A stretch of DNA of 64,000 bases from Candidatus Poriferisocius sp. (GCF_965214065.1 NZ_CBDCAT010000026.1:180922-244921); one strand, 5' to 3'; shown: positions 12,188-62,044, counted from the first letter of the stretch. Made by a program: numbers and translations. Notes: a model not told the origin generated them from the letters alone.

Positions 12188-12193
12188 TTCTGG

Positions 12194-14705: not shown

Positions 14706-14708
14706 GGC

Positions 14709-16288: not shown

Positions 16289-16313
16289 ACGGACAGCCGT
16301 ATCGCGGGGCACA

Positions 16314-16862: not shown

Positions 16863-16897
16863 GCCACCGGTCGAACCGAGAACTACCATCGGCAGCC

Positions 16898-18369: not shown

Positions 18370-18388
18370 ACCCAGAAGAGAGGTTTCC

Positions 18389-19486: not shown

Positions 19487-19487
19487 C

Positions 19488-20021
19488 TTAGCTGCGGATC
19501 AAGCGGACTAGGTGGGCGACGACTCGCCCGATGGGGGGTGCCTCCCCGCTGGCCAGCGGATCGAGGGTGAACTCCACCTGGGTCTCACGTTGGCGCGAGC
19601 CGGTGACCGGATTCGCCTGCACGGTAGCGGCCAGTTGGCACACAACGCCGTTGTCAGCGGTAAACGTGACTTGGACAATGCCGGTTGTGGGGTCGATGTA
19701 GCTCACCTCGCCCAACTCATGGCCCGCATCGACCAGTCGAGCGAACACGTCTCCGGCCGGCAAGTGAAGGACCAGACTGTCGTCGGTCTTCGCTTTGGCG
19801 GGCGTTGCCGACTTCCGGGGCGACGACTTGGACGGCTCCAGCGGATTGGTTCCAGCCCGCTGGAGCCAGTAGTAGGCCTCGGTGATGCGGGCGGCCACCG
19901 CGGTGCTGCCCCCCACATCGGGGTGAGCTAGTCGGATCAGCTCCCGATAGGCCCGGTTGATGTCAGCGGCCTGTGCCCCCTTCTCCAGTCCCAGCGTCCG
20001 TAGCGCCCGCTCCCGGTTCAC
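19488..20021 (-). CDS. J-domain (DnaJ-like) protein with an uncharacterised C-terminal domain
   Basis: …LGLEKGAQAADINRAYRELIRLAHPDVGG… carries the HPD motif. GTG start inferred (VNRERALRTLGL…). Confidence 0.65.
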   Translation of the reverse strand: MNRERALRTLGLEKGAQAADINRAYRELIRLAHPDVGGSTAVAARITEAYYWLQRAGTNPLEPSKSSPRKSATPAKAKTDDSLVLHLPAGDVFARLVDAGHELGEVSYIDPTTGIVQVTFTADNGVVCQLAATVQANPVTGSRQRETQVEFTLDPLASGEAPPIGRVVAHLVRLIRS

Positions 20022-20050
20022 CCCCGCAAGCGTAGGGGGTGGGGCAAAAC

Positions 20051-20839
20051 TCAGCTTTCGGCGAGGAACTCCAAGATGGTGGGGTAGGCGGTGGGGTCTT
20101 GCAGCATGAAGATGTGGCCGCCGTCGAAGGTGGCCAGTCGGGCGTTGGGGATGCGGTCGCGCAGGAGTTCGCTGTTGCGCATGGGGGCGATGCCGTCGTG
20201 GATGCCAGCGCACACCAGGCTGGGAACGTCAATATCGCCCAGACGGTCAACCACGTCGTGGCCCCGGCGGGCTTCGAGCTGGCCGAGAGCGCCGGAAGTG
20301 TTGAGCGGAAGGGCTGGGCCGTCGGGGCGGGCCGCGGTCACGAACACTTCTACGCCGGGGGGCAGCGGACCTCCCCTTTGATAGCGGGTGTCCATGATCT
20401 CTAGGGCCACCTCGCCCCGCTCGTCGGGGTCGAGGTCGGCCAGGGTGTGCAGGGGCCACGAGCTGTACTCGGGACCACCTGGTGAGGTGCAGTTGAGCAC
20501 CAGCTTGCTGATGCGACCCGGATGGAGAACGGCCATATTCATGCCCACCATCCCGCCGAAGCTGGTGCCCACCACCGGCACCGAGTCCCAGCCTAGAAAG
20601 TCCAGGAACGCCACCGCGTCGGCGGCGTAGTCGGCCATGGTCCACGGCAGCGGTGGGGTAGAAGTCTGGCCCAGGCCTCGCTGGTCGAAGTGGGCCACGG
20701 TGAAGGCCCCGTTGAGCGAATTCTGGTCGGGAGCGGTCATGCGGAGGTCTCCGCCGCTACCACTGATGTTCAATAGGGGTGGCCCCGAACCGTGCAGCTC
20801 GAAGTACAGGTTGAGGTCGCGGACTTTGGCTATCGGCAT
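20051..20839 (-). CDS. alpha/beta hydrolase
   Basis: …LYFELHGSGPPLLNISGSGG… and a GTSFGG nucleophile elbow. Confidence 0.8.
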   Translation of the reverse strand: MPIAKVRDLNLYFELHGSGPPLLNISGSGGDLRMTAPDQNSLNGAFTVAHFDQRGLGQTSTPPLPWTMADYAADAVAFLDFLGWDSVPVVGTSFGGMVGMNMAVLHPGRISKLVLNCTSPGGPEYSSWPLHTLADLDPDERGEVALEIMDTRYQRGGPLPPGVEVFVTAARPDGPALPLNTSGALGQLEARRGHDVVDRLGDIDVPSLVCAGIHDGIAPMRNSELLRDRIPNARLATFDGGHIFMLQDPTAYPTILEFLAES

Positions 20840-20876
20840 TGGCTCATGTTGCCACGGTTGCCGACGGGCGGAACGA

Positions 20877-47925: not shown

Positions 47926-49085
47926 GTGCAAGGGTCTCACTGGGAATCAATCCTGAGGAACTGGCCTCGTGCGTGGCGTGTGGGCTGTGTTTGCCTCACT
48001 GCCCGACGTTTCGGGTAACCGGTGAAGAGTGGGCCTCGCCCCGGGGGCGAATCAGCGCCATGCGCCAGGTGCAGGATCAGGGCGCGGCCATCGACCAGGC
48101 GTTCTTGTCTTCGATGGACACTTGTGTGCAGTGCCGGGGTTGCGAACCGGCCTGTCCGTCGGGGGTGCCGTTCGGCTCGATGATGGAAGCCACTCAGGCC
48201 GAAATGAACCGTCAGCGGCGGGTGGACTGGCGTCGGTGGAGGTTTCGGCTTCTCGGACGTCCTCGACTGCTGAACCTGCTGTCGCGGATGCTGGCCGTGG
48301 CCCAGCGGCTGCGGCTAGTGCCATCCAAGAGGCTGGGGTTGCCCAAGATTCCCCTGCGACAAGATCGGCTTCAAGCTTCGGGCGACGACGTGTGGCTGTT
48401 CACCGGTTGCGTGATGGACGCCTGGCAGCGGTCGACCCATGCGGCGGTGAAGCGGGTGGTGGAAGCAACTGGGGCCGGGGTGGCTCTGCCCGGTGCCGGT
48501 GCCGCGTGCTGCGGAGCGCTTTCGCTCCACGCTGGCTTGGATGACCATGCCCGCTCATTGGCGGTGCGAACGATGAAGACTCTGGACGGCTCGGCCCCGA
48601 TTCTGGTGGACTCGGCGGGATGCGGGGCCGCCCTCAAGGAGTATGGCAAGCACTTGGGCACGCTAGAGGCCATTGCCTTCAGCGAGCGGGTGCTGGACGT
48701 CCACGAGTGGCTAGCGGCCCATGCCGACCGACTGCCATTGGTGGGGGAGCAGGCTGAGGAACTGACCGTGGCGGTTCACGACCCCTGCCATCTGCGCCAT
48801 GTGCAGCGGGCGCATGAGCCCGTAGCCGAGGTACTGGCCCGCTACGCCAACGTGGTGACCCTGGACGACGACGGCCTGTGCTGCGGGGCCGGTGGCGCCT
48901 ATGCGGCCATGCAACCGGATCTGGCGGCGTCGATTCGAGAGCGCAAGCTGGAGGCCATAAGGCGCTCTGGCGCAACTATCGTGGCCAGCGCCAACCCCGG
49001 CTGCACCATCCATTTGGCCAACGCCGGAGTGGCAGTGCGCCACCCCCTGGAAATCGTGGACGAGGTTTTGGACAGTGACCGTTGA
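47922..49085 (+). CDS. glcF: glycolate oxidase iron-sulfur subunit GlcF-like
   Basis: Two 4Fe-4S motifs (CVACGLCLPHCP, CVQCRGCEPACP) plus Cys-rich CCG domains. Confidence 0.85.
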   Translation: MSARVSLGINPEELASCVACGLCLPHCPTFRVTGEEWASPRGRISAMRQVQDQGAAIDQAFLSSMDTCVQCRGCEPACPSGVPFGSMMEATQAEMNRQRRVDWRRWRFRLLGRPRLLNLLSRMLAVAQRLRLVPSKRLGLPKIPLRQDRLQASGDDVWLFTGCVMDAWQRSTHAAVKRVVEATGAGVALPGAGAACCGALSLHAGLDDHARSLAVRTMKTLDGSAPILVDSAGCGAALKEYGKHLGTLEAIAFSERVLDVHEWLAAHADRLPLVGEQAEELTVAVHDPCHLRHVQRAHEPVAEVLARYANVVTLDDDGLCCGAGGAYAAMQPDLAASIRERKLEAIRRSGATIVASANPGCTIHLANAGVAVRHPLEIVDEVLDSDR

Positions 49086-49254
49086 GCACATCCGCACCCA
49101 GCTCGAGCAGATCGCCGAACAACTCGACGACCTGGCCATGTCAGCACTGCGCGACGCGGTGGAAGAAGGGGCCACAACCCGCCCCGAGGAAGAAAAGAAG
49201 CTGACCCGAGCCCGCCGGTCAGTCGAGAAGGCAATCTCGATCTTGGAGGCTTAG
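49075..49254 (+). CDS. possible small helical protein (59 aa), translationally coupled to glcF
   Basis: Below the ORF-track size cutoff. The GTG at 49075 overlaps the glcF stop. VTVEHIRTQLEQIAEQLDDLAMSALRDAVEEGATTRPEEEKKLTRARRSVEKAISILEA has G/C-ending codon usage like the surrounding genes. Confidence 0.35.
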   Translation: MTVEHIRTQLEQIAEQLDDLAMSALRDAVEEGATTRPEEEKKLTRARRSVEKAISILEA

Positions 49255-49551
49255 CCCCTCTTCCGGAAAGGACCTACGCAGATCGACGTTGGTCCTTGCA
49301 GATGTGTATTTGTCGAGTTTGGGCCTTGGAAGAGAAGAAGGCCAGAACCCCGAGGTTGATCGTGACCCCGCCAGCCACTGAAGCTCTTCGCAGCCAGTCA
49401 GCGCCCGTTCGCGCGGTGATCTTCACGGTAATGGCGTTATCTGCACCTGCGGATGGTTGGGCAAGGGGCCGGCACCAAGACGACGGCCATCGTCGCCGCG
49501 ATGCGTCGGATGGCTCGCCGGATGGTTCGCCAAAGAGTAGGCACTGGAGGA

Positions 49552-52158
49552 TTAGGTGTGTGCGGCGCGCAGCGCGGCTGTGGAGGCGGGGTCTAGGGCG
49601 AGGTAGCAGCCAAAGCTCTCGTGGTAGCCCCAGCTGACCTGGGCCAAAACGGTTTGGCGGTCGGCGGACTTCGCCACATCCACCGGCTCGGCGCCGAACT
49701 TGTGGTGGTCGAAGCACCGCTGGGCCGCCCCTGCGTCCCCGGCGGGGAACCCCTCGGGCGCCGCAGCGGCTTGGAGCACGCCCAAAGCGCCCTCATCGAG
49801 GGTGAGGTAGCAGCCGATGCTGTCGTGGTAGCCCCAGCTGAGCTGAGCCAACACAGCCTGACCGTCAGCGGACTTCGCCACATCCACCGGCTCAGCCCCG
49901 AACTTATGCACCCCAAAGCACAACTCCGCCGCGCCGCCGTCGCCGGTGTCTTCTTCGGTGTCGGTCGGGTCGGAAGCGCCGTCGCCGGTGTCTTCGGTGC
50001 CGCCGCCGGTCTCACCGGAAGCGTCGCCGTTGCCAGGTTCGGTGCCGCCGTCGCTGTCGTCTTCGATGTCAGTCGGATCAGATGCGCCGTCGCCAGGTTC
50101 GGTTTGGCCGGTGCTGTCTTGGTCGTCGCCAGGTTCGGTTTGGCCGGTGCTGTCTTGGTCGTCGCCAGGTTCGGTTTGGCCGGTGCTGTCTTGGTCGTCG
50201 CCAGGTTCGGTTTGGCCGGTGCTGTCTTGGTCGTCGCCGGTGTCGGAGGGGTCGTCGGTGGCGGTCTCGCCGGAATCGTCTTCGTCGGAGGTCCTGCTGA
50301 CATCGGTGGTGGTCTCGCCGCTGTCGGAAACAGTGACAGGCACCGTGGTTGTCCCACCCGACCCGACGGGTACTCCCTCCAAGGTTATCGACGTTGTCAC
50401 ACTGGGAGGTGTTAACTGGAGGCCCAAGATGTTACCCCAGCAGTCGATGGTTTGGTCGGCGGCGATGGCGCAGGCGTGGCTGCCGCCTGCGGCGATGGCG
50501 GTGTATTGGCCATCGGGCGCGTCGGTCTGCCCGTCACTGTTCCAGCCCCAGCAGTCGATGGTTTGGTCGGCGGCGATGGCGCAGGCGTGGCTGCCGCCTG
50601 CGGCGATGGCGGTGTACTGCCCGTCGGGCGCGTCCGCCCGGCCCTCCCCGTTGTTGCCCCAGCACTCGATGGTTTGGTCGGCGGCGATGGCGCAGGCGTG
50701 GCTGCCGCCTGCGGCGATGGCGGTGTATTGGCCATCGGGCGCGTCGGCCCGGCCGTACCAGCTGGAGCCCCAGCAGTCGATGGTCTGGTCGGCGGCGATG
50801 GCGCAGGTGTAGTCGCCGCCTGTGGCGATGGCGGTGTATTGGCCATCGGGCGCGTCGGTCTGGCCGACAGGGTTGAGGCCCCAGCAGTTGATGGTTTGGT
50901 CGGCGGCGATGGCGCAGGCGTGGTTGGCGCCTGCGGCGATGGCGGTGTATTGGCCATCGGGCGCGTCCGCCTGGCCGCTCCAGTTGCCACCCCAGCAGTC
51001 GATGGTTTGGTCGGCGGCGATGGCGCAGGCGTGGTCGTTGCTTGCGGCGATGGCGGTGTATTGGCCATCGCGCGGGTAGGTCTGGCCGTACCAGCTGCCG
51101 CCCCAGCAGTCGATGGTCTGGTCGGCGGCGATGGCGCAGGTGCGGTTGACGGCGGCAGTGATGGCGGTGTATCGGTCGTCGGTTGGGATATGCACTGTCA
51201 TTTGCCAGTCGTCTCCGGGGTAGAGGTCTTGCGCGGTGTGGGTCCCGTCGTCGCCGGTAGCAGCCTGGAAGAATCCTGTTCCTGTGGTGTAGAAGGGGCT
51301 GGGGGGCATCGACTGGTAGGGGTTCTGGGAGGTGATCCAGCCTGTGACGGGGATGCCTTGGAGGGGTTGGCCGTCGGCGTCGGCGACTGCAACGGTGATG
51401 CGTCCTGCCCGCAAAACTTCCACGGTGCCGGCGTTTGTGGTCTGGCCGGCGGCTACCTCGACTTCGGCGGCGGCGTTGTTGGCGAGGTGGCCTGCGCCGT
51501 GGTTGCCGTGGGCGATGCGGTAGGTGCCGGGGGGGACCGGCGGGGAGGTGAACTCGCCGGTCTGGAGGTCGACGTCGAGCAGCCAGTCACCGCTGCCCCA
51601 TAGCGCGTAGTCTCCGTCGGGGGGAGGCCCGCCGTCGGAGCCCGTGAACCGGCCCGACACCCGGCCGCCGGCCTCGAGCTCGACGTCGATGCCTGACAGC
51701 GACTCCCAACTCCACAGTTGCTCATAGCCGTAGCCGTCGATGAAGCGGGTAGCGAGGTTTGCGCTGCGGTCCCAGACCATCAGCGTCAGGTTTTCCAGGT
51801 TTTCGCCTCTTGTGACGGTCACCGACCACCGGCCCGAGCTGTCGACTCCGGTCTCGGCGAGGTACACTACCGAATACCCCTCCAGCGGCCGGGGGCGTTG
51901 GGAGCCGTCATCGGCCAGCCCGGCCGCGCACTCCCCCCAGCATCCCGCCACCACCGTGACCGCCACATCGGCGGTCGACACGCCGCTCGGGGCGGCGACA
52001 GTGCCGCTGAAGGTGGCCGCGCTGTCCTGCGCCGCAGCCGGCCCGGCCGCAGAAGACCCCAGCAAAGCAGCCACCAGCGCGACGGCCACCAACAACGCGG
52101 CCCTCATACTGCCTGCGGCCCCGCTGGTGTTTGCCGGCGACTCGCTATAACAGAACAT
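49552..52158 (-). CDS. secreted multidomain protein: signal peptide, beta-sandwich (carboxypeptidase-regulatory-like) domains, 7-bladed short RCC1-like propeller, acidic linker, two C-terminal two-Cys modules
   Basis: AGGAG RBS 8 nt before the ATG at 52158. Signal peptide …MRAALLVAVALVAALLGSSAAGPAAAQD. Seven repeats of DGQYTAIAAG..H.CAIAADQTIDCWG.N..GQ.DAP. A D/E/T/G-rich linker. C-terminal 2x CF.HHKFGAEPVDVAKSAD.Q.VLAQ.SWGYH.S.GCYL.LD. Confidence 0.85.
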   Translation of the reverse strand: MFCYSESPANTSGAAGSMRAALLVAVALVAALLGSSAAGPAAAQDSAATFSGTVAAPSGVSTADVAVTVVAGCWGECAAGLADDGSQRPRPLEGYSVVYLAETGVDSSGRWSVTVTRGENLENLTLMVWDRSANLATRFIDGYGYEQLWSWESLSGIDVELEAGGRVSGRFTGSDGGPPPDGDYALWGSGDWLLDVDLQTGEFTSPPVPPGTYRIAHGNHGAGHLANNAAAEVEVAAGQTTNAGTVEVLRAGRITVAVADADGQPLQGIPVTGWITSQNPYQSMPPSPFYTTGTGFFQAATGDDGTHTAQDLYPGDDWQMTVHIPTDDRYTAITAAVNRTCAIAADQTIDCWGGSWYGQTYPRDGQYTAIAASNDHACAIAADQTIDCWGGNWSGQADAPDGQYTAIAAGANHACAIAADQTINCWGLNPVGQTDAPDGQYTAIATGGDYTCAIAADQTIDCWGSSWYGRADAPDGQYTAIAAGGSHACAIAADQTIECWGNNGEGRADAPDGQYTAIAAGGSHACAIAADQTIDCWGWNSDGQTDAPDGQYTAIAAGGSHACAIAADQTIDCWGNILGLQLTPPSVTTSITLEGVPVGSGGTTTVPVTVSDSGETTTDVSRTSDEDDSGETATDDPSDTGDDQDSTGQTEPGDDQDSTGQTEPGDDQDSTGQTEPGDDQDSTGQTEPGDGASDPTDIEDDSDGGTEPGNGDASGETGGGTEDTGDGASDPTDTEEDTGDGGAAELCFGVHKFGAEPVDVAKSADGQAVLAQLSWGYHDSIGCYLTLDEGALGVLQAAAAPEGFPAGDAGAAQRCFDHHKFGAEPVDVAKSADRQTVLAQVSWGYHESFGCYLALDPASTAALRAAHT
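50092..50235 (-). repeat. 4 x 36-bp perfect in-frame tandem repeat (encodes DDQDSTGQTEPG x4)
   Basis: Plus strand gccaggttcggtttggccggtgctgtcttggtcgtc occurs four times head-to-tail. Confidence 0.9.
50424..51177 (-). repeat. array of 7 RCC1-like blade repeats (~114-117 nt each) with long near-identical nucleotide stretches
   Basis: Recurrent cagcagtcgatggt(t/c)tggtcggcggcgatggcgcagg(c/t)gtgg… motif. Alternate-frame track ORFs here are periodic artefacts of it. Confidence 0.85.
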
Positions 52159-52211
52159 GGCGGGAACTCTCCTGAAAAAGGCGGGCACTGACGGCCATCA
52201 TGGTCGTACAA

Positions 52212-52225
52212 CCCCCCCCCCCCCC
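52212..52225 (-). repeat. G14 homopolymeric tract (C14 on the plus strand), 53 nt upstream of the 52158 start codon
   Basis: Plus strand …tacaa-cccccccccccccc-gcaaatctg… counted directly as 14 nt. Confidence 0.95.
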
Positions 52226-52258
52226 GCAAATCTGCGTACGGGCGTCAGCGGCCAGCGC
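52226..52258 (-). promoter_or_regulatory. conserved 33-nt element abutting the G14 tract (copy 1)
   Basis: gcaaatctgcgtacgggcgtcagcggccagcgc is identical to 56445-56477. Similarity is lost beyond it. Confidence 0.6.
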
Positions 52259-52419
52259 CTTGCCGTTGGCGCAGCACTTCGAGGTTGTCGACCGATGTGG
52301 GCCCGCCGGGCAAAAGCCATTGGGCCCGTAGCCAGTCGGACTCTGCTGACACGAAGTCGCCCAAGTTGAAGCAGGCGGCGCCCCGCTTGCTGAAAACCCG
52401 ATTCGAGCCAGTGCGCGCG

Positions 52420-55400
52420 CTAGGTGTGCGCGGCGCGCAGCGCGGCTGTGGCGGCGGGGTCTAGGGCGAGGTAGCAGCCGAAGCTCTCGTGGTAGCCCCA
52501 GCTGACCTGGGCCAAAACGGTTTGGCGGTCGGCGGACTTCGCCACATCCACCGGCTCGACCCCGAACTTGTGGTGGCCGAAGCACCGCTGGGCCGCCCCC
52601 GCGTCCCCGGCGGGGAACCCCTCGGGCGCCGCAGCATCTTGGAGCACGCCCAAAGCGGCCTCATCGAGGGTGAGGTAGCAGCCGATGCTGTCGTGGAAAC
52701 CCCAGCTGAGCTGAGCCAACACAGCCTCGCCGTCAGCAGACTTCGCCACATCCACCGGCTCAGCCCCGAACTGGTGCACTGCGAAGCAACGCTCCGCCGC
52801 ACCATCGTCTTCGGGTTCAGCCTCGCCGGAGTCTTTGCCCCCGTCTTCGGGTTCGGCCTCGCCGGAGCCCTCGCCCCCGTCTTCGGGTTCAGCCTCGCCC
52901 GAGGGGTCGCCGGTGTCGGTCTCGCCGGAGGGGTCGCCATCGCCTTCGGTTTCAGTACCGCCGGAGCCCTCGCCGCCGCCGGTGTTGGAGGGATCGTCGG
53001 TGTCGGTCTCGTCGGAAGCGCTGTCGCCGGAGGTCCTGCTGACGTCGGTGGTGGTCACGCCGCTGTCGGAAACGGTGATATGCACTGTGGTTGTCCCTCC
53101 CGACCCGACGGCTACTCCCTCCAACTCCAAGGTTGTCGAATCGATGGGTGTTGCCTGGCCGTCTCTGTTATAGCCCCAGCAGTCGATGGTGTTGTCGACG
53201 GTTATGGCGCACGAGTGGGAGTAGTCGGCGGCGATTTGGGTGTATTGCCCGTCAGGCGCGTCGGCCTGGCCGTAGTCGTTTTCGCCCCAGCAGTTGACTG
53301 TGTTGTCGACGGCGATGGCGCACGAGTAGCCGTCGCCGGCGGAGATTGCGGTGTATTGCCCGTCGGGCGCATCCGCCCGGCCGTCGTCGTTGTAGCCCCA
53401 GCAGTCGATGGTGTTGTCGACGGCGATGGCGCACGAGTAGCCGGTGCCGGCGGCAATTGCGGTGTATTGCCCGTCAGGCGCATCCGCCTGGCCCGCCCCG
53501 TTGTAGCCCCAGCAGTCGATGGTGTTGTCGGCTGCGATGGCGCAGGTGTGGTCCCAGCCGGCTGCGATGGCGGTGTATTGCCCGTCAGGCGCATCCGCCT
53601 GGCCCTCCCCGTTGTAGCCCCAGCAGTCGATGGTCTGGTCGGCGGCGATGGCGCACAAGTAGCCGTTGCCGGCGGCAATTGCGGTGTATTGCCCGTCAGG
53701 CGCATCCGCCTGGCCGGCAGGGTTGAGGCCCCAGCAGTCGATGGTTTGGTCGGCGGCGATGGCGCAGGAGTGGTCATCGCCGGTTGCGATGGCGGTGTAT
53801 TGCCCGTCGGGCGCGTCGGCCCGGCCGCTGCCGTTGTAGCCCCAACAGTCGATGGTGTTGTCGGCGGCGATTGCGCAGGAGTGGGATTGGCCGGTGGCGA
53901 TGGCGGTGTATTGTCCGTCGGTTGGGAGCTTCATTATGATTCGCCAGTCGTCTCCGGGATAGAGGTTTTGCGCGGTGTAGGCCCCGTCGTCGCCGGTAGC
54001 GGCCCCGAAGACTCCTGTTCCTGTGGTGTTGTAGAAGGGGCTGGAGGGCATCATCTGGTAGGGGTTCTGGAAGGTGACTCCGCCTGAGACGGGGATGCCT
54101 TGGAGGGCTTGGCCGTCGCTGTGGGCGATTGAGACGATTATCTGGCCGGGCTGTTGGACTCGAACGGTGCCGGCGTCTGCGGTCTGGCCGGCGGCGATTT
54201 CGATTCGGGCCGCGTCGTTGTTGGCGAGGTGGCCGCCGCCGTGGTTGCCGTGGGCGAGGCTGTACTCGCCGGGGGCCACGATTGGGGAGGTGAACACCCC
54301 GGTTTGCGGGTCGACGTCGAGGTCGAGCAGCCAGTCACCACTGCCCCATCCCCATAGCGCGTAGTCTCCGGGCGGCGGAGGCCCGCCATCGGAACCTGTG
54401 AACCGGCCCGATGCCCGGCCGCCGGTGTCGGAGGGGTCGTCGGTGGCGGTCTCGTCGGAATCGCCGTCGCCGCCGGCCTGCCCACCGCTACAGACGAGTT
54501 CTGGTTCCCCATTCCATGCCACAGTGCAATCAACGGTTCCGCCGGGGGCGACGGCTATCCCCTCCGCCGAGGCGTCAAAGACCGGCACAGGCACATTGGC
54601 CTGGCCGTACCTGTTGTTGCCCCAGCAGTCGATGGTGTTGTCGGCGGCGATGGCGCAGGCGTGGACGCCGCCGGCGGAGATTGCGGTGTATTGCCCGTCG
54701 GGCGCGTCGGCCTGGCCGTATTCGTTGTTGCCCCAGCAGTTGATGGTGTGGTCGGCGGCGATGGCGCAGGCGCCGCCGGCGGAGATTGCGGTGTATTGTC
54801 CATCGGGCGCGTCGTATTGTCCATCGGGCGCGTCGGCCTGGCCAAAGAAGTCGTAGCCCCAACAGTCGATGGTCTGGTCTACGGCGATGGCGCAGGAGCT
54901 GCCGGCGGAGATTGCGGTGTATTGCCCGTCGGGCGCGTCGGTCTGGCCAAAGAAGTCGTAGCCCCAGCAGTCGATGGTTTGGTCGGCGGCGATGGCGCAA
55001 GCGTGTAGGTGACCTGCGGCGATGGCGGTGTATTGCCCGTCGGGCGCGTCGGCCTGGCCGCTGCTGTTGTAGCCCCAGCAGTCGATGGTTTGGTCGGCGG
55101 CGATGGCGCAGGCGTGGTCGCCGCCGGCGGAGATTTCGGTGTAGTGCCCGTCGGGCGCGTCGGTCTGGCCGGAGTAGTTGTTGCCCCAACAGTCGATGGT
55201 GTAGTCGGCGGCGATGGCGCAGGTGTGGTCGCCGCCGGCGGAGATTTCGGTGTATTGCCCGTCGGGCGCATCGGCCTGCCCGTATTCGTTGTTGCCCCAG
55301 CAGTCTATGGTCTGGTCGGCGGCGATGGCGCAAGTGTGGGCGGAGCCGGTGGTGATGGCGGTGTATTGCTGTGGGATTGCGATGTTCGTTTCGATTTGCC

Positions 55401-56379
55401 AGTCGCCGGGGTACAGGTTTTGCGTGGTGTGGGTTCCGTCGTCGCCGGTGGCGGCCCAGAAGTATCCTGTTCCGCTGGTGCCGAAGGGGCTGCCGGGCAT
55501 GGACCAGTAGGGGTTTTGGGAGGATATTTCGCCTGACACGGCGACTCCTTGGAGGGGTTGGCCGTCGGCGTCGGCGATCGCGACGGTTATGCGGCCGGCC
55601 TGTTGGATTTGCACGGTGCCGGCGTCTGCGGTCTCGCCGGCGGCTACCTCGACTTCGGCGGCGGCGTTGTGGCCGAGGAAGCCTTCGCCGTGGTAGGCGT
55701 GGGCGATGCGGTGGGTGCCGGGGGGGACCGGCGGGGAGGTGAACTCGCCGGTTTGGGGGTCGACGTCGAGCAGCCAGTCGCCGCTGCCCCATAGCGCGTA
55801 GTCGCCGCCGGGCGGAGGCCCGCCATCAGACGTGGAGAACCGGCCCGACACCCAGCCGCCGGCCTCGAGCTCGACATCGGCGTCGCCGATGTCGACATCG
55901 CCGAACTCGACGCCCCCCCAGGGATCCCAAACGAAGTAATAACGGGGAGCGAGCACACCGCCCTCATCCCAAACCAGCAGATTCACATGACTCACACGCT
56001 GGCTTTGCGGCTCCGCCACGGTCATCGACCACCGGCCCGAGCTGTCCACCCCAGCCTCGCCGAGGAACTCCACCGCCTCCAAAGGCCGCGGGCGCCCGGC
56101 GGAACCCTCGGTCTGCCCCCCGCCATCGCAGCCGCCCCAGCAGAAAGCCACCACCGACACAACCACACCGTCCGTGGACACACCCACAGGAGCAGAGACC
56201 GTCCCGCCCAAAGACGCCATAGCGGACTGCGCCGCAGCCGGATCGTCCTGCGCCGCAGCCGGCCCGACCGCAGAAGACCCCAACAAAGCCGCCACCAGCG
56301 CAACCGCCACCAACAACGCAGCCCTCCCGCGCGTTGCCCTCCTCGCGGGGTGGTGCGGCGACAAGCTGTCTTGGTTCAT
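52420..56379 (-). CDS. secreted multidomain protein, paralog of 49552-52158 with an internally duplicated (beta-sandwich + 7-blade propeller) unit, acidic linker and two C-terminal two-Cys modules
   Basis: GAGGAGG RBS 9 nt before the ATG at 56379. Signal peptide …RGRAALLVAVALVAALLGSSAVGPAAAQDD. Two separate arrays of seven RCC1-like blades. The C-terminus is near-identical to that of the paralog. Confidence 0.85.
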   Translation of the reverse strand: MNQDSLSPHHPARRATRGRAALLVAVALVAALLGSSAVGPAAAQDDPAAAQSAMASLGGTVSAPVGVSTDGVVVSVVAFCWGGCDGGGQTEGSAGRPRPLEAVEFLGEAGVDSSGRWSMTVAEPQSQRVSHVNLLVWDEGGVLAPRYYFVWDPWGGVEFGDVDIGDADVELEAGGWVSGRFSTSDGGPPPGGDYALWGSGDWLLDVDPQTGEFTSPPVPPGTHRIAHAYHGEGFLGHNAAAEVEVAAGETADAGTVQIQQAGRITVAIADADGQPLQGVAVSGEISSQNPYWSMPGSPFGTSGTGYFWAATGDDGTHTTQNLYPGDWQIETNIAIPQQYTAITTGSAHTCAIAADQTIDCWGNNEYGQADAPDGQYTEISAGGDHTCAIAADYTIDCWGNNYSGQTDAPDGHYTEISAGGDHACAIAADQTIDCWGYNSSGQADAPDGQYTAIAAGHLHACAIAADQTIDCWGYDFFGQTDAPDGQYTAISAGSSCAIAVDQTIDCWGYDFFGQADAPDGQYDAPDGQYTAISAGGACAIAADHTINCWGNNEYGQADAPDGQYTAISAGGVHACAIAADNTIDCWGNNRYGQANVPVPVFDASAEGIAVAPGGTVDCTVAWNGEPELVCSGGQAGGDGDSDETATDDPSDTGGRASGRFTGSDGGPPPPGDYALWGWGSGDWLLDLDVDPQTGVFTSPIVAPGEYSLAHGNHGGGHLANNDAARIEIAAGQTADAGTVRVQQPGQIIVSIAHSDGQALQGIPVSGGVTFQNPYQMMPSSPFYNTTGTGVFGAATGDDGAYTAQNLYPGDDWRIIMKLPTDGQYTAIATGQSHSCAIAADNTIDCWGYNGSGRADAPDGQYTAIATGDDHSCAIAADQTIDCWGLNPAGQADAPDGQYTAIAAGNGYLCAIAADQTIDCWGYNGEGQADAPDGQYTAIAAGWDHTCAIAADNTIDCWGYNGAGQADAPDGQYTAIAAGTGYSCAIAVDNTIDCWGYNDDGRADAPDGQYTAISAGDGYSCAIAVDNTVNCWGENDYGQADAPDGQYTQIAADYSHSCAITVDNTIDCWGYNRDGQATPIDSTTLELEGVAVGSGGTTTVHITVSDSGVTTTDVSRTSGDSASDETDTDDPSNTGGGEGSGGTETEGDGDPSGETDTGDPSGEAEPEDGGEGSGEAEPEDGGKDSGEAEPEDDGAAERCFAVHQFGAEPVDVAKSADGEAVLAQLSWGFHDSIGCYLTLDEAALGVLQDAAAPEGFPAGDAGAAQRCFGHHKFGVEPVDVAKSADRQTVLAQVSWGYHESFGCYLALDPAATAALRAAHT
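53147..53920 (-). repeat. RCC1-like blade array (7 repeats), C-terminal propeller of the 1319-aa protein
   Basis: GQYTAIA.G…CAIA.DNTIDCWGYN..G.ADAP repeated seven times. Confidence 0.85.
54590..55373 (-). repeat. RCC1-like blade array (7 repeats), N-terminal propeller of the 1319-aa protein
   Basis: QQYTAITTGSAHTCAIAADQTIDCWGNNEYGQADAP… repeated seven times, including two blades with shortened loops (SAGSSCAIA, SAGGACAIA). Confidence 0.85.
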
Positions 56380-56430
56380 GGCTGGGGCCTCCTCAAAGCA
56401 CAGGGCTCGCTACCCCACATTGGTCTACTG

Positions 56431-56444
56431 CCCCCCCCCCCCCC
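56431..56444 (-). repeat. G14 homopolymeric tract (C14 on the plus strand), 51 nt upstream of the 56379 start codon
   Basis: Plus strand …ctactg-cccccccccccccc-gcaaatctg… counted directly as 14 nt. Confidence 0.95.
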
Positions 56445-56477
56445 GCAAATCTGCGTACGGGCGTCAGCGGCCAGCGC
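56445..56477 (-). promoter_or_regulatory. conserved 33-nt element abutting the G14 tract (copy 2)
   Basis: Identical to 52226-52258. Confidence 0.6.
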
Positions 56478-56479
56478 TC

Positions 56480-56774
56480 TGGTGTTGGCTTGGTGACTGA
56501 ATAGCATGGCAGTGAACGTGCCGGTGGGGGGATCCGAAACACCCCTTCTCCATCCACGTTCATAGCGAGAGGTCCAGAATTCGTCCGCGCAGGTGATGGC
56601 ACCGTCGGTTTTGTGCCCGCACATGATCTCGGGACGGGAAGAGACCTCGGTGAATTGGCCGCTGAGGGTGTCAACTTGCAGCTTCCGTTGGAGGCTTAGT
56701 TGGATTCCGGTTTGGCCTCTGGGGGGAATGTGGGCCTTGTTGCTTATGTTCAGGTCATATCCAATTGATAACAA
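56480..56774 (-). pseudogene. degenerate fragment of an RCC1-like repeat gene (no credible start, no signal peptide)
   Basis: Track ORF 56376-56774 contains LSGQFTEVSSRPEIMCGHKTDGAITCADEFW…PPTGTFTAM. This resembles decayed copies of the blade consensus (GQYTxISxGxxHxCxxxxDxTIxCWG…PDGQYTAI) and runs into the 33-nt element and G tract. Confidence 0.35.
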
Positions 56775-56839
56775 GCATTATTCGCTTATTAACGTTTATT
56801 CGGGTAGTTGTTGTCACAGAGGTCGGTATACTTGCATGT

Positions 56840-58123
56840 ATGGAGTTTAGGCCTCTGGAACAGGGGAAACAGACTGGTCGAGCGCCTTCCAGGCCGGTTT
56901 GGCCGGAGGCGGCTGATGTGGCCGGGCTGTCGCTGTGCGAGCTGCGGGAGCGGCTGGGGCTGATCAAAAAAGCCGAGGCCCGGCTGGCGGCGATGAAAAC
57001 GGAGACATTGGCCGCCTATGCCAGCCGGGGAGGCGAGGGATTGGCCCGCCGGGTGGCGTTGGAGGAGTTGCAGGCTTCTAAGCAGCAGGCCCGCCGGGAA
57101 GTGGAGACCGCCTCCCAGTTCTCGCAGGTTCCCGAGACTCTCGACGCGCTGGGCGCGGGGGAGATTCCCGAGGCCCACGCCAAGCAGATCGCCAAGGCCG
57201 CATCCCAGGGGCCGGTTGACGAATCCGTGCTGGTGGAGGCGGCCCGGCGCGAGGACTTCGGAACGTTCTCCCGGACGCTTCGCGATCACCTGCATGAGCG
57301 GTCGGGCGACGATGGCAAGTCGTTGATGGCCAAGCAGCGGGAGCGCCGCTCCTTGAGCTTCTTCAAGTCTTCTGACGACGGCATGTTCATCTTGAACGGC
57401 CGGTTCGACCCGGTTGCGGGGAACCGGATCGAAGCGGCGCTGGCCGATGAGGTGCGCCGCCAGCGAAACGACAGCGACGCCGGTGATCTAACGGGGTTCG
57501 ACCAGCGGATGGCCGACGCGCTCGAGAATCTGGTCTGCGCCGACACCGGCGACCGCAAACCCCACGGCACCACACTGATATTGACGGCCGGGTGGGACGC
57601 GCTTAACCAGAAGCTGGCCGATGCCCGCCTGCTCGACGGCACACCCCTGCCGATTGACGAGGTCGTGAGACTGGCGTGCAACGCCGACATCGTGCCCGCC
57701 GTGTTCAATACCAAAGGCCAGGAACTGTGGGTAGGGCGCAAACACCGCTTGGCCACCGAAGCCCAAAGAGCCGCCCTTATCATCCGCGACAAACACTGCA
57801 TCGGCTGCGGACGATCAGCGGTGTGGTGCGAAGCCCACCACATTGAAGAATGGCTGAGCGGCGGACGCACCGACATCGACAACCTCGTTCTGGTCTGCAA
57901 AAGCTGCCACCACAACATCCACGACGACGGCTGGGTCGTGAGCAGAGACCGAAACGGCGCCTACGAACTACAACCACCACCTAGGCCCTACGCCGAATTC
58001 CCCTCTGGGCAGGCACGCTCAGGGCCATCCCTCGCCCGATCTCAATCCAATCCCGAAGCCTTTCCCGAAGTAGGCATCACCACCTGGCAGCCAAAAGAAT
58101 CCAGGCAGCTGCTATTGAGCTGA
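56840..58123 (+). CDS. HNH endonuclease with DUF222 N-terminal domain (REP13E12-like family)
   Basis: …LDALGAGEIPEAHAKQIA… (DUF222) and C-terminal …RDKHCIGCGRSAVWCEAHHIEEWLSGGRTDIDNLVLVCKSCHHNIHDDGW (HNH). Start at Met 56840, downstream of an AT-rich stretch. Confidence 0.85.
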   Translation: MEFRPLEQGKQTGRAPSRPVWPEAADVAGLSLCELRERLGLIKKAEARLAAMKTETLAAYASRGGEGLARRVALEELQASKQQARREVETASQFSQVPETLDALGAGEIPEAHAKQIAKAASQGPVDESVLVEAARREDFGTFSRTLRDHLHERSGDDGKSLMAKQRERRSLSFFKSSDDGMFILNGRFDPVAGNRIEAALADEVRRQRNDSDAGDLTGFDQRMADALENLVCADTGDRKPHGTTLILTAGWDALNQKLADARLLDGTPLPIDEVVRLACNADIVPAVFNTKGQELWVGRKHRLATEAQRAALIIRDKHCIGCGRSAVWCEAHHIEEWLSGGRTDIDNLVLVCKSCHHNIHDDGWVVSRDRNGAYELQPPPRPYAEFPSGQARSGPSLARSQSNPEAFPEVGITTWQPKESRQLLLS

Positions 58124-58166
58124 CACAGTGCTGGCGTGCCGACTAGCGGGGGTAGCATTGCCAGCC

Positions 58167-59678
58167 ATGCCCATGAAGTGGATGTGCCGTGCAATTCTCG
58201 TGGTCGCCTCTCTCGGCGCGGTGGCAGCAGTGCCCGCGGGTCCTGCCGTATCTCAGGGCGGCGCTGAGCCGAGCGCGGCGCAGCGGTGCTTTGAACACCA
58301 CAAATTCGGCGCTCAGCCCGTCGACGCGGCTAAAGCCGCCGACGGCCAAACCGTGTTGGCCCAGGTGAACTGGGGGTACCACGACAGCATCGGCTGCTAC
58401 CTCACCCTCGACGACACCGCGCTGGCCACCCTGCGAGCAGCGCCCGCCCCCAAAAACCTGCCCACTGCGGAAACCGAAGCGTCAAGACAGTGCTTCGAGC
58501 ACCACAAGTTCGGCCAACGCCCCGTCGATGTCGCCAAAACCACGGATCGCCAAACCGTCCTCGCCCGCCTCAGCTGGGGCTACCACGACAGTATCGGCTG
58601 CTACCTCACCCTCGACGACACCGCCCTAACTACTCTGCGAACCAACGCCCAACCCGAACCGACACCCGACCCGACTGTCAACCCGACCCCCGAACCGACA
58701 CCCGACCCGACTGTCAACCCGACCCCCGAACCGACACCCGACCCGACCCCCGAACCGACCCCGATTCCAGCCAGCAAGACCGGGACTGGATCAGACATCG
58801 TTGCAGTTGCACTCACCGAGGGCACCCACATAGTCGAGATTGAAGCGGCGGCAGCAACCGGACACCTCAGCGTAACCCTCAGCCAGGCGGGCTCACGATG
58901 CGACCTGCTCGTAAACGAGATCGTTGACGACCAAGGCGTGTGGACCGGACGCAAAGTGCTAAACGTCGGCGGGTTCGCCGGCTGCGAAACCGGCAACGCC
59001 GTAATCGAAGTGGATACCGAACCCGGCGCCCGATGGACCATCACCATCAACCCGACCCCCGAACCGACCCCGATTCCAGCCAGCAAGACCGGGACTGGAT
59101 CAGACATCGTTGCAGTTGCACTCACCGAGGGCACCCACATAGTCGAGATTGAAGCGGCGGCAGCAACCGGACACCTCAGCGTAACCCTCAGCCAGGCGGG
59201 CTCACGATGCGACCTGCTCGTAAACGAGATCGTTGACGACCAAGGCGTGTGGACCGGACGCAAAGTGCTAAACGTCGGCGGGTTCGCCGGCTGCGAAACC
59301 GGCAACGCCGTAATCGAAGTGGATACCGAACCCGGCGCCCGATGGACCATCACCATCAACCCGACCCCCGAACCGACCCCGATTCCAGCCAGCAAGACCG
59401 GGACTGGATCAGACATCGTTGCAGTTGCACTCACCGAGGGCACCCACATAGTCGAGATTGAAGCGGCGGCAGCAACCGGACACCTCAGCGTAACCCTCAG
59501 CCAGGCGGGCTCACGATGCGACCTGCTCGTAAACGAGATCGTTGACGACCAAGGCGTGTGGACCGGACGCAAAGTGCTAAACGTCGGCGGGTTCGCCGGC
59601 TGCGAAACCGGCAACGCCGTAATCGAAGTGGATACCGAACCCGGCGCCCGATGGACCATCACCATAGGCGGCGAGTGA
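58167..59678 (+). CDS. secreted protein: signal peptide, two N-terminal two-Cys modules, Pro/Thr linker, three identical 103-aa domains
   Basis: MPMKWMCRAILVVASLGAVAAVPAGPAVSQG signal. 2x CFEHHKFG..PVD.AK..D.QTVLA..(S/N)WGYHDSIGCYLTLDD. PEPTPDPTVNPT linker. 3x (NPTPEPTPIPASKTGTGSDIVAVALTEGTHIVEIEAAAATGHLSVTLSQAGSRCDLLVNEIVDDQGVWTGRKVLNVGGFAGCETGNAVIEVDTEPGARWTITI). Confidence 0.8.
   Translation: MPMKWMCRAILVVASLGAVAAVPAGPAVSQGGAEPSAAQRCFEHHKFGAQPVDAAKAADGQTVLAQVNWGYHDSIGCYLTLDDTALATLRAAPAPKNLPTAETEASRQCFEHHKFGQRPVDVAKTTDRQTVLARLSWGYHDSIGCYLTLDDTALTTLRTNAQPEPTPDPTVNPTPEPTPDPTVNPTPEPTPDPTPEPTPIPASKTGTGSDIVAVALTEGTHIVEIEAAAATGHLSVTLSQAGSRCDLLVNEIVDDQGVWTGRKVLNVGGFAGCETGNAVIEVDTEPGARWTITINPTPEPTPIPASKTGTGSDIVAVALTEGTHIVEIEAAAATGHLSVTLSQAGSRCDLLVNEIVDDQGVWTGRKVLNVGGFAGCETGNAVIEVDTEPGARWTITINPTPEPTPIPASKTGTGSDIVAVALTEGTHIVEIEAAAATGHLSVTLSQAGSRCDLLVNEIVDDQGVWTGRKVLNVGGFAGCETGNAVIEVDTEPGARWTITIGGE
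58741..59665 (+). repeat. 3 x 309-bp tandem repeat, copies identical by eye, in frame
   Basis: Copies start at 58741, 59050 and 59359. Alternate-frame track ORFs recur at exactly 309-nt spacing (58940, 59249, 59558) with identical translations. Confidence 0.9.
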
Positions 59679-59746
59679 TGGAACTCCGCCCCAGCGAAAC
59701 CTTCGCCACCGGGCACGACCTTCTGGCGCTCGGGGCTAGCTAGTAC

Positions 59747-62044
59747 CTAGACAGCGACCCCGTCGTACAGCGTGGTGCGTTGGCGGAGGGTGCGGCCCAA
59801 GGGAGCACACAGCGCTTGAAGGTCGTCTTCGGTGGCTTCTTGGCCATGGGAGGCGCCGGCGGCTCGGGAGATGTTCTCGTTTATGAGGGTACCGCCGAGG
59901 TCGTTGACGCCGGCTTGGAGCATCTGGGCGGCCCCGGCCATGCCGAGCTTCACCCACGAGGCCTGAATGTTGTGGATCCAGCCGTGGTAGGCGATTCGGC
60001 CCACGGCGTGCATCAGCAGCGCCTCCCGGAAAGTGGGACCCCGCCGAGACCGCCGCTGCAAATAGATGGGAGCGGCCATGTGGACGAAGGGCAGGGGCAC
60101 AAACTCGGTGAACCCGCCGGTCTCCTTTTGGAGTTCGCGGGTGCGGACTAGGTGGCGGGCCCAGTGGACTGGTTGTTCGACCGTGCCGAACATGATGGTC
60201 ACGTTGGACCGCAGTCCCAGTCCGTGGGCGGTGCGGTGGGCCTCCAGCCACTCGCCGGTGTCGATCTTGTCGGGGCAGATCACGGCACGGATCTCGTCAT
60301 CGAGGATCTCAGCAGCCGTGCCCGGCAGCGAGCGAAGGCCAGCGTCCATCAAGCGGCGCAGATAGTCGGCCAGCGGCTCCTCCAGGCGGCGGGCGCCCTC
60401 GGTTACCTCAAGCGCAGTAAAGCCGTGGACATGGATGTCGGGCACGGCGTCCTTCACGGCGCGGGTCACGTCGATGTAGTAGTCGCCGTCGAAGTTGGGG
60501 TGGATGCCGCCTTGGAGGCAGACCTCGGTGGCCCCGGCCTCGGCTGCTTCCACGGTGCGCTCGGCAATGTCGTCCAAGCTCAGCAGGTAGGGGTCGCCCC
60601 GCAGGTTGAGCGATAGCGGCCCCTTGGAGAAGCCGCAGAACCGGCACTTGAAAGTACAGACGTTGGTGTAGTTGATGTTGCGGTTGGACACCCAGGTGAC
60701 TTCGTCGCCCACCGCGGCCTGGCGGAGCTCGTCGGCCAGTGCGGCCACCGCCCGCACCTCGGGACCGCGGGCACCGAACAGAGCGACGATCTCTGGGACC
60801 CCGACTTCTTGGCCAGCCCGGACCCCGGCGATCACTTCACCCACGGCTCCTCCGGCGGTGGCGCGACCGTTCGGGACCCCATTGACAGATGGCGCGGCCA
60901 GCAGCATCGGTGGCTGGGCATCGGCACCGGAGTACCAACCGGCGTCGTCGGGGCGCCCCATGCCTTCGGCATCGGCCCGGTCCAGCACCGGAAATCGCAT
61001 GTCGGCATCCAGCCACCGCTCGGAATCGAGGGCGTACTCGGGATACACGGTCAACCGGGGGGCCAAGGCAAACCCCTTGGCCTCAGTGACGGCCCGCAGG
61101 CGGTCGAGGGCCGGCCAGGGGCGCTCGGGATTCACATGGTCGGCGGTGATCGGCGACACGCCGCCCCAATCATCGATGCCCGCGTCGAGCAGTTGGCCGA
61201 AGTCGTCAGATAGGTTGGGCGGGGCCTGGAGATGGACCTCCTCGGGCAAGATGAGGCGGGCCAGGGCGATCGCCTCCATGTACTCGTCGTGGTCGCAGGG
61301 CGGGGCAGCGTGCATGGCCGTGCCCGGCTTGGGCAAGAAGTTCTGCACGATGACCTCTTGAACATGGCCCCAGCGCCGATGCGATTCGGCAATGGCCTCC
61401 AGAGCGTCGACCCGGTCGGCCCTAGTCTCGCCGATGCCCACCAAGATGCCGGTGGTGAACGGGATGGCCAGCTCCCCGGCTGCCTCGAGGGTGGCCAGAC
61501 GCCGCTCGGGGGCCTTGTCGGGCGATCCCCGATGGCAGTCCAGATCGGCCAGGGTCTCCAGCATCATCCCCTGCGACGGGGCGGTCTTGCGGAGCAGGGC
61601 CAGTTCCTCGGAATAGAGGGCACCGGCGTTGGCGTGGGGGAGCAGGCCGGTCTTTTCCACCACCAGGCGACTGGCATGGGCCAGGTAGTCCACTGTGGAG
61701 GCAAATCCGTGCTCATTCAGCCACTTCGCGGCATCGGGGTAGCGAAGTTCAGGACGCTCGCCCAAGGTGAACAGCGCCTCGTGGCATCCGACTCCTGCCC
61801 CCGACTCGGCGATGGCCAGCACCTCGTGATCGCTCAAGTAGGGCGACTCCAATCGGGCGGGTGGCTGGGCAAAGGTGCAGTAGCCGCACTTGTCCCGGCA
61901 CAGCATGGTGAGGGGGATGAACACCTTGGGGGAGTAGGTGATCCGAGTGCCGTGCACCCGATCTCGCACCGCCCGGGCCCGGGCCATCAGGTCATCGAGG
62001 CCCAAGTCCAGCAGGTCTCGACTGGTTGGAGCAGCGATCGTCAC
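59747..62044 (-). CDS. fbiC: bifunctional FO (7,8-didemethyl-8-hydroxy-5-deazariboflavin) synthase, fused CofG/CofH
   Basis: Two radical-SAM CxxxCxxC sites (CGYCTF, CRFCGF) in a ~765-aa two-domain protein with CofG/CofH-type sequence throughout. The GTG start overlaps the tal stop. Confidence 0.9.
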   Translation of the reverse strand: MTIAAPTSRDLLDLGLDDLMARARAVRDRVHGTRITYSPKVFIPLTMLCRDKCGYCTFAQPPARLESPYLSDHEVLAIAESGAGVGCHEALFTLGERPELRYPDAAKWLNEHGFASTVDYLAHASRLVVEKTGLLPHANAGALYSEELALLRKTAPSQGMMLETLADLDCHRGSPDKAPERRLATLEAAGELAIPFTTGILVGIGETRADRVDALEAIAESHRRWGHVQEVIVQNFLPKPGTAMHAAPPCDHDEYMEAIALARLILPEEVHLQAPPNLSDDFGQLLDAGIDDWGGVSPITADHVNPERPWPALDRLRAVTEAKGFALAPRLTVYPEYALDSERWLDADMRFPVLDRADAEGMGRPDDAGWYSGADAQPPMLLAAPSVNGVPNGRATAGGAVGEVIAGVRAGQEVGVPEIVALFGARGPEVRAVAALADELRQAAVGDEVTWVSNRNINYTNVCTFKCRFCGFSKGPLSLNLRGDPYLLSLDDIAERTVEAAEAGATEVCLQGGIHPNFDGDYYIDVTRAVKDAVPDIHVHGFTALEVTEGARRLEEPLADYLRRLMDAGLRSLPGTAAEILDDEIRAVICPDKIDTGEWLEAHRTAHGLGLRSNVTIMFGTVEQPVHWARHLVRTRELQKETGGFTEFVPLPFVHMAAPIYLQRRSRRGPTFREALLMHAVGRIAYHGWIHNIQASWVKLGMAGAAQMLQAGVNDLGGTLINENISRAAGASHGQEATEDDLQALCAPLGRTLRQRTTLYDGVAV

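Follow-up and report, generated by a model that had tools for sequence, protein, structure and literature searches.

A strain-specific accessory island in a sponge-associated Candidatus Poriferisocius encodes putatively exported repeat proteins sharing a tandem two-Cys module

The persistence of symbionts inside a bacteria-feeding sponge is an unsolved question for which eukaryotic-like proteins (ELPs) are the main candidates. Sponge-symbiotic Acidimicrobiia are enriched in ELPs with leucine-rich repeat (LRR), fn3 and cadherin domains, and the 11 ELP domain classes screened in that work did not include RCC1/ACR4-type propellers (PMC11706023). Here we analyze a 64,000-nucleotide stretch of DNA (the window) from Candidatus Poriferisocius sp. 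(GCF_965214065.1, NZ_CBDCAT010000026.1:180922-244921), a sponge-associated organism placed by the NCBI taxonomy in the Acidimicrobiia, Ca. Hopanoidivoransaceae, and describe in it an accessory island that carries two genes for RCC1/ACR4-like propeller proteins (propA and propB), a gene for a third repeat protein (protein C) and a DUF222-HNH gene, with a tandem two-Cys module common to the three repeat proteins and a long G tract upstream of each propeller gene. Like the ANK, LRR, FN3, cadherin and WD40 ELPs of sponge symbionts (PMC11706023), these are secreted-type proteins with eukaryote-type repeats encoded in variable regions of sponge Acidimicrobiia genomes, and the family defined by the module also uses FN3, LRR and CAP domains; unlike in the case of those ELPs, we found neither the tandem two-Cys module nor the promoter G tracts described in earlier literature. 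The best matches of the propellers in the PDB are plant ACR4, UVR8 and RCC1, and the closest genomes are Ca. Poriferisocius metagenome-assembled genomes (MAGs); since the source is a sponge symbiont, the proteins fit the ELP theme.

Several other described systems resemble parts of this locus. In the Cwp family of Clostridioides difficile, a tandem terminal anchor at the N- or C-terminus is combined with variable functional or repeat domains, and one member, CwpV, is phase-variable, has strain-specific repeat types and switches by DNA inversion. The proteins described here likewise form a paralogous family with a shared tandem terminal domain (putatively an anchor) and variable partners, but the Cwp anchor is CWB2, which is present in three copies, has a known wall-polymer ligand and is unrelated to the module reported here, and the inversion switch of CwpV differs from the homopolymer tracts of this locus. 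Phase variation through promoter homopolymers is known from the poly-C tract of Bordetella fim and the poly-C/G tracts of Neisseria opc and porA. The likeness to those promoters lies in a long G/C run directly 5' of the presumed -10 element of a gene for a surface or secreted protein, with a length that differs between homologous promoters; the differences are that switching is here a candidate property and that the host is an uncultured, high-GC member of the Acidimicrobiia. Homopolymer-tract phase variation has also been documented in an actinobacterium, M. tuberculosis, and most of its tracts are shorter than those reported here, which reach 14-26 nt (PMC10334774). According to a passage in PMC10589994 that cites Gordon et al. 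1999, DUF222-HNH genes correspond to the REP13E12 repeats of mycobacteria. Set against that passage, the gene described here has the same DUF222 plus HNH architecture and forms a repeated accessory unit, present across related genomes at two variable loci and in both orientations, and it differs in its single copy in the window and in a steady neighborhood of module genes that appears specific to this lineage. Finally, the propellers share with Arabidopsis ACR4 (CRINKLY4, PDB 7a0j), RCC1 and UVR8 blades of about 37-39 residues, a paired Cys/CWG pattern and seven blades per propeller, whereas, unlike ACR4, the window proteins are bacterial, are predicted to have no kinase or membrane anchor and join the propeller to beta-sandwich domains and the two-Cys module.

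The locus lies between genes of core metabolism: gltBD, pyk, a CLC channel gene and glcDEF precede it, and fbiC, tal and tkt follow (Table 1). A GlcF scan restricted to one genome per species yielded 21 genus-level loci (individual loci of relatives are given L numbers below), in all of which a small gene directly following glcF, orf59, is conserved at 77-95% amino acid identity; the gene matches no Pfam family and falls to about 55% identity in more distant Acidimicrobiia. In 13 of the 21 loci orf59 and fbiC are separated by just 6-92 bp, as measured from tblastn hit coordinates. These empty sites include L002, an Acidimicrobiales MAG chromosome and the closest relative of the window, whose glcF, fbiC and tal products are 95-97% identical in amino acid sequence to those of the window (80-93% for many Candidatus Poriferisocius genomes) and in which the two stop codons stand 4 bp apart. 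A previous reading made from the sequence alone (the sequence-only reading) had proposed an island flanked by glcDEF and fbiC-tal-tkt, with adjacency of glcF and fbiC in related genomes as the check, which the island passes. Both the island and its flanks are borne out, although the limits had been drawn too narrowly: because orf59 and fbiC nearly abut in relatives, the island comprises the entire interval between them.

Other genus members carry unrelated cargo at the same position. The gap holds only the HNH unit and a gene fragment also found in the window in L009, a protein combining the module with PD40 and LRR domains (678 or 1251 aa) together with HNH in L003 and L004, an inverted HNH gene accompanied by a module gene and a VapC/antitoxin pair in L017, an HlyD/ABC-exporter cluster in L014, and the series DUF2237, HNH, a single-repeat protein C homolog and PIN/PhdYeFM in L090-L092. 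Insertions have thus recurred in the orf59-fbiC gap across the genus. Close relatives have an empty site between conserved flanks, but the classical marks of mobility are missing: GC content (66.1% in the island, 65.4% in the rest of the window) does not indicate a foreign origin, tRNA and Rfam scans returned no tRNA gene or Rfam RNA within the island, and none of its 4 intact proteins has an integrase domain. In view of this unremarkable composition, and with no tRNA gene, integrase or clear end duplication, the gap is best described as a flexible hot spot between convergent genes that is filled from the gene pool of the lineage. A prophage was ruled out, phage genes being absent.

The three repeat proteins are united by the module, which occurs in each as a tandem pair of about 52 aa per copy with one conserved Cys pair; in propA and propB it follows the pattern C-x3-H-x-FG-x2-PVDVAK-x-AD-x3-VLA-x3-W-x2-H-x3-GC-YL-x-LD. 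AlphaFold2 models each module as a helix, three strands and a second helix (alpha-beta3-alpha; pLDDT 94.5), a model for which Foldseek returned no match with E<0.1 in PDB or BFVD. Neither Pfam nor NCBIfam has a model for the module, and PADLOC returned nothing for it. An exhaustive profile search of 1.84 billion representative proteins retrieved 124 module representatives with a sharp cut-off, and a word-indexed search retrieved 25 relatives in which the only Pfam domains, RCC1_2 (2 proteins) and Trypan_PARP (1), lie outside the module. The few named relatives are all annotated as hypothetical proteins from MAGs labeled bacterium or Ca. Poriferisocius, to which a later look-up added one Acidimicrobiia bacterium, and a metagenome scan with the module recovered 4 loci only.

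Full-length members of the family carry the pair in a fixed 68-residue register, located directly after the signal peptide in most members or else ending about 12 residues before the stop codon. Among 67 members, the fusion partners are RCC1_2 (30), fn3 (9), CAP (7), CarboxypepD_reg (4), LRR (3) and subtilase (2). These results give good support to a family that is closed, confined to this lineage and made up of exported modular proteins with eukaryote-like binding domains; the module provides a lineage-restricted tag by which the whole family can be listed.

The two minus-strand genes encode proteins of 868 aa (propA) and 1319 aa (propB). The propA reading frame spans 49552-52188, and ATG 52158 was chosen as its likely start because of an AGGAGA Shine-Dalgarno site and by analogy with propB, in which ATG 56379 is preceded by GAGGAGG. 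Pfam RCC1_2 matches both proteins far above its cut-off of 22 bits (E 5.5e-38, 128 bits, for propA; E 5.9e-89, 290 bits, for propB), and WD40_RLD reaches 158 bits in propB (cut-off 150) and just 64 bits in propA. The 37-residue blades form tandem arrays with a 111-bp period and 83-86% identity; seven CWG-ended blades in propA and seven plus seven in propB, all 21 keeping the Cys/CWG pattern, lead us to infer propellers, whose best match by sequence among solved structures is the Arabidopsis ACR4 ectodomain (7a0j, E 3.5e-25), followed by UVR8 and RCC1. In propB each of the two blade sets follows a beta-sandwich region of fn3_3 or CarboxypepD_reg-like type. An exact-sequence look-up of propB returned no record elsewhere.

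Protein C, encoded on the plus strand, is a 503-aa protein in which the module pair stands at the N-terminus and is followed by a Pro/Thr repeat and three identical 309-bp repeats. The identity of these repeats indicates a very recent expansion and not decay. The 103-aa domain that each encodes has a handful of relatives, no match in Pfam, NCBIfam or PADLOC, and a putative all-beta model that is too weak for a structure search (pLDDT 60). The module-coding segments of propA and propB form inverted repeats with that of protein C (up to 367 nt, 71-78% identity); these are the sole inverted repeats found in the island, bracket 5.5-8.5 kb and could serve as substrates for inversion. The protein C homolog of L090-L094 (P0015) shows, in five samples, an in-frame TAG within its signal-peptide codons (ATG CTC AGA AAG CGA TTT AGC TAG), so that this gene has become a pseudogene or else is translated from a later start, with no export signal.

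On the island's content the sequence-only reading was largely accurate: the pair of giant minus-strand paralogs with propeller repeats, the third secreted protein with the same duplicated module at its N-terminus, the HNH/DUF222 gene behind an AT-rich patch, the two Gn tracts and the nucleotide-level repeats (blade arrays, 36-bp repeats and 309-bp repeats) were all recovered. Its description of the paralogs as near-identical at both ends holds for the 3' end, where 389 bp are 93% identical, but fails at the 5' end, where close similarity is confined to a 47-nt promoter block (100%) and the core of the signal peptide.

The assignment of the three proteins to the secreted class, also made in the sequence-only reading, is compatible with our data. 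PropA, propB and protein C each have one hydrophobic segment, at the N-terminus and with AxA-type sites behind it, and their blades and modules are rich in Cys, features that fit export by the Sec route. No second hydrophobic or transmembrane segment and no C-terminal LPXTG sorting signal was found in any of the three; the loose pattern L[PA]x[TAS]G has one match, LAETG at propA residue 100. Furthermore, no motif, domain or structural match links them to the known sortase/LPXTG, SLH, LysM, CWB2 or PASTA anchoring systems. Their retention on the cell by the module is possible, with odds that we place a little short of even on architectural analogy. The proteins might instead be released as soluble factors, such as inhibitors that bind tightly or lectin-like proteins that bind molecules of the host or of competitors, with the module acting as an oligomerization or ligand-binding domain. 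Such release would agree with the lack of LPXTG, of a C-terminal transmembrane segment and of a known wall-binding domain, with the strongly acidic composition of the proteins (about 14% Asp+Glu against 2-3% Lys+Arg) and with the CAP and protease fusion partners, which usually act in solution; BLIP-II, a secreted actinobacterial inhibitor, is likewise a short-blade 7-bladed propeller. We nevertheless regard release as unlikely, given that a tandem domain at either terminus, long low-complexity linkers and diverse passengers make up the usual layout of non-covalently anchored surface proteins, as seen in the SLH, CWB2, GW and LysM families.

Each propeller gene is preceded by a G14 tract within a 47-nt block that is 100% identical between the two genes, while the adjacent 100-nt alignment stretches are 52-63% identical. 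Two such tracts compare with 0.07 expected from shuffles of the window, although they are not independent of each other, since both lie in the duplicated block. Both are located upstream of start codons, which rules out a frameshift switch within the coding region. A second type of promoter, found at genes with an N-terminal module, consists of a G-run followed by TAGC(G/A)T, 8 nt and ATG, and its G-run varies among homologous promoters (Table 1), whereas the two G14 copies of the window are equal; protein C has a short run in a promoter homologous to those with the longest runs of this type. In L088 a comparable arrangement reads G16, TAAAAT, 9 nt and GTG. Across the 1.49 Mb examined, 5 of 11 distinct G/C runs of at least 9 nt are located upstream of module-family genes at a distance of no more than about 110 nt. 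The spacing of TAGC(G/A)T, and of a TATACT element at the HNH gene, points to leaderless mRNAs as the rule for these accessory genes, with propA and propB having Shine-Dalgarno leaders. Long homopolymers thus stand 5' of genes for putatively secreted proteins and differ in length between homologous sites, a pattern expected of contingency promoters, and we give about an even chance that the G tracts modulate transcription by slippage.

A competing explanation, which we consider somewhat unlikely, is that the tracts are neutral slippage products in non-essential intergenic DNA, copied along with gene duplication, and that the locus is conventionally regulated or silent. It accommodates the origin of both G14 copies in one event, the L083 homolog of the propeller promoter, which has only a G4 within a G-rich 14-mer, and the many family members that have no long tract. 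It does not readily accommodate the recurrence of 10-26-nt tracts directly 5' of unrelated secreted eukaryotic-like genes in different genomes, the placement of the tract against a TANNNT hexamer in three independent cases, or the perfect conservation of the tract block between paralogs whose neighboring sequence has diverged. Runs of this length are intrinsically unstable, and the equal length of the two copies therefore suggests recent conversion or selection. Two further data sets have no bearing on instability or yielded nothing: the five P0015 contigs share one sequence, with just a G4 run, and a scan of the metagenome collection with a 24-nt flank plus G7 gave no match. Among relatives, L088 also has, at 21324-21349, a C26 run (coding strand) some 50 nt upstream of the signal-peptide codons of an LRR and FN3 protein of more than 2400 aa (13720-21300), and in L086 G24 and G14 runs lie side by side at 3340-3396.

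The DUF222-HNH gene matches both of its domains (DUF222 E 1.8e-21, 77 bits; HNH E 2.9e-10, 41 bits) and retains an intact HNH motif, CIGC...HH...N...CKSCHH (CxxC...HH...N...CxxC-H). With a TATACT hexamer 7 nt ahead of its ATG, the gene probably has a leaderless mRNA. Other similarities of the protein are limited to weak matches of the HNH domain to IscB, and an exact-sequence look-up of two versions of the protein returned no match. DNA conservation of the unit extends from about 125 nt upstream of the ATG into the 3' part of the gene. In related genomes the unit is seen in either orientation and at each of the two variable loci (the second is described below), always near module genes; the window itself has one copy in 64 kb, and the occurrence at two loci is a comparison across different genomes. 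The HNH gene may contribute to the hot spots, although we would put this at clearly less than even.

The vicinity of the nuclease gene to secreted repeat proteins and displaced fragments bears a loose likeness to orphan-toxin loci, and some relatives carry VapC/antitoxin pairs in the same gap, so that a polymorphic-toxin, competition or anti-phage defense module with the HNH nuclease as effector could be envisaged. We judge this to be very improbable, in that the HNH domain belongs to a separate, predicted cytoplasmic DUF222 protein with no signal peptide and is not fused to a secreted protein, what the secreted proteins conserve is a terminal module rather than a variable toxin tip, the island contains no immunity-like gene, and PADLOC gave only two marginal partial matches (E about 0.01).

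The island also preserves traces of its assembly. The sequence-only reading had recognized one gene remnant, a decayed fragment of a third propeller-type gene; this fragment is real, and a second remnant, of a Wzy_C/TPR gene, accompanies it. Over 56487-56683 the DNA of the first matches, at 87% identity, the 3' part of an intact L017 gene that encodes the module plus a degenerate RCC1 region, and L003, L004 and L009 have the same junction between fragment and HNH unit, which makes this junction the oldest part of the island. The second remnant retains the last 49 codons of its gene, with the first 14 nt of the 47-nt promoter block forming its end, and matches the Wzy_C proteins of L083 and L082 (tblastn, 53% identity, E 1e-9) and the DNA of L001 (84% over 118 nt). 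In L001, L082 and L083 a Wzy_C gene is the upstream neighbor of propeller-module genes at a second variable locus, which extends to a CitMHS transporter gene; its L083 version contains, besides four or five propeller genes, genes for a PIN protein and an M23 peptidase, a further module gene and another DUF222-HNH gene (a contig of the same type recovered via P0034 is identical to L083 and represents the same data). The Wzy_C tail upstream of propA thus indicates that the propeller genes were copied from the second locus together with the tail of their old neighbor.

The two remnants, along with products of decay in relatives, namely P0023 (a propA-like N-terminal piece fused to a hybrid module), an in-frame Wzy_C-blade fusion in L001, the premature stop of P0015 and module fragments in L003, could also mean that the whole locus is a decaying relic whose genes are becoming pseudogenes, unexpressed and with no present function. 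This is improbable in our estimate, as the three long reading frames are intact and have signal peptides, their GC3 values (0.72-0.83) are similar to those of glcF (0.76) and fbiC (0.83), and neither the complete retention of the blade pattern nor the identity of the 309-bp repeats is what decay would leave. The deletion derivatives and remnants seen in the window and in relatives do agree with the rapid turnover that the sequence-only reading had proposed.

Taken together, these data lend good support to a strain-specific accessory island undergoing rapid gain, loss and recombination. The explanation of the whole that we consider best, and moderately probable, is that of a flexible island in which an HNH-centered mosaic encodes an exported family with a common module handle and a changing repertoire. 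The mosaic would have been built around a resident DUF222-HNH gene of selfish type, with propeller genes copied from the Wzy_C-CitMHS locus placed to one side of it and the repeat-protein gene to the other. In the encoded proteins, the terminal module pair, joined by an acidic or Pro/Thr linker to eukaryote-like binding domains, would be the handle that holds them at the cell envelope or on a shared partner, and the variable domains would contact host or other external ligands. The repertoire may change by three routes: gain, loss and recombination of genes and repeats; expansion of arrays; and slipped-strand changes in G-tract length just upstream of the -10 element, altering the transcription of single genes.

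Several observations weigh against parts of this explanation. The hexamers that follow the G14 tracts of the window (TACGAC and TAGACC) are poor -10 matches, a consensus promoter scan found no -35/-10 pair at these tracts, which also favors the neutral account given above, and most propeller genes of the second locus have no long tract. The case for anchoring comes from architecture, since the module resembles no known wall-binding fold. HNH divergence approximately tracks core-gene divergence, so that vertical descent with losses fits as well as mobility, and the ends of the island show neither a target-site duplication nor terminal repeats, inverted or direct; the HNH gene could be a mere passenger.

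A further-reaching proposal, unlikely when all its parts are taken jointly, is that Ca. Poriferisocius and related sponge Acidimicrobiia possess a contingency system in which 10-26-nt promoter G/C tracts would stochastically switch single secreted eukaryote-like proteins, these proteins would be held on the cell by the tandem two-Cys module as a new anchor domain, and DUF222-HNH elements would mark or create the recombination hot spots at which the repertoire is rebuilt. If this is true, it would give both the uncultured sponge symbionts and the class Acidimicrobiia their first described phase-variable surface repertoire. The locus provides evidence that genes of the family turn over by exchange, duplication and deletion, and do so at a few hot spots of the chromosome, and it raises the testable idea that homopolymer tracts switch individual genes.

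Table 1. Coordinates of features in the window and at related loci.
Feature	Position	Strand	Description
Whole inserted island	49255..59746	.	10.5 kb, between the orf59 stop and the fbiC stop
orf59 (conserved 59-aa gene)	49075-49254	+	Directly after glcF; left edge of the insertion site
fbiC	59747-62044	-	Right edge of the island; convergent with orf59
propA	49552..52158	-	Signal peptide, beta-sandwich N-terminal region, one predicted 7-blade RCC1/ACR4-like propeller, linker, C-terminal tandem module
propA C-terminal tandem two-Cys module	49555-49950	-
propA acidic 36-bp-repeat linker	50088-50246	-
propA G14 block	52212..52258	-	G14 at 52212-52225 plus 33 nt at 52226-52258; tract end 53 nt before ATG 52158
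Wzy_C/TPR remnant	52251..52394	-	Last 49 codons
propB	52420..56379	-	1319 aa; signal peptide, two units of beta-sandwich plus predicted 7-blade propeller, acidic 36-bp-repeat linker, tandem module
propB C-terminal tandem module	52423-52818	-
propB blade arrays	53153-53919 and 54688-55369	-
propB G14 block	56431..56477	-	G14 at 56431-56444 plus 33 nt at 56445-56477; tract end 51 nt before ATG 56379
Fragment with module plus degenerate RCC1	56487..56700	-	Cut 5' by the HNH unit and 3' by the propB promoter block
DUF222-HNH unit	56700..58123	+	Conserved upstream region of about 125 nt plus coding sequence 56840-58123
AT-rich patch	56735-56815		36% GC against about 66% for the locus
Protein C	58148..59678	+	Likely start ATG 58167; G5, TAGCAT, 8 nt, ATG; signal peptide
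Protein C tandem module (N-terminal)	58260-58652	+
Protein C Pro/Thr 36-bp repeat	58653-58747	+
Protein C 309-bp repeats	58741-59665	+	3.0 copies, 100% identical, each encoding a 103-aa domain modeled as all-beta
Second locus (Wzy_C/TPR to CitMHS)	L083 4349-21670; L082 10001-12817; L001 9500-13984		One to five propeller-module genes
Empty sites	L002, L005-L008, L010-L012, L015, L018, L019, L021, L022
G-run lengths of TAGC(G/A)T promoters	L090-L094 G4; protein C and L004 G5; L017 G10; L083 G15

Two observations concern the remaining cargo of the orf59-fbiC gap in relatives. The L014 cluster (11410-17171), as read from its translations, comprises an HlyD-like gene and two ABC exporters, one of them with an N-terminal peptidase-like region, and would be an export cluster of bacteriocin type; a G9 run lies at 17432-17440 of the same locus. 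Furthermore, a small DUF2237 gene stands beside fbiC or orf59 in L013 (11349-11828), L017 (14670-15389) and L090 (433-810), and may be part of an older arrangement of the gap.

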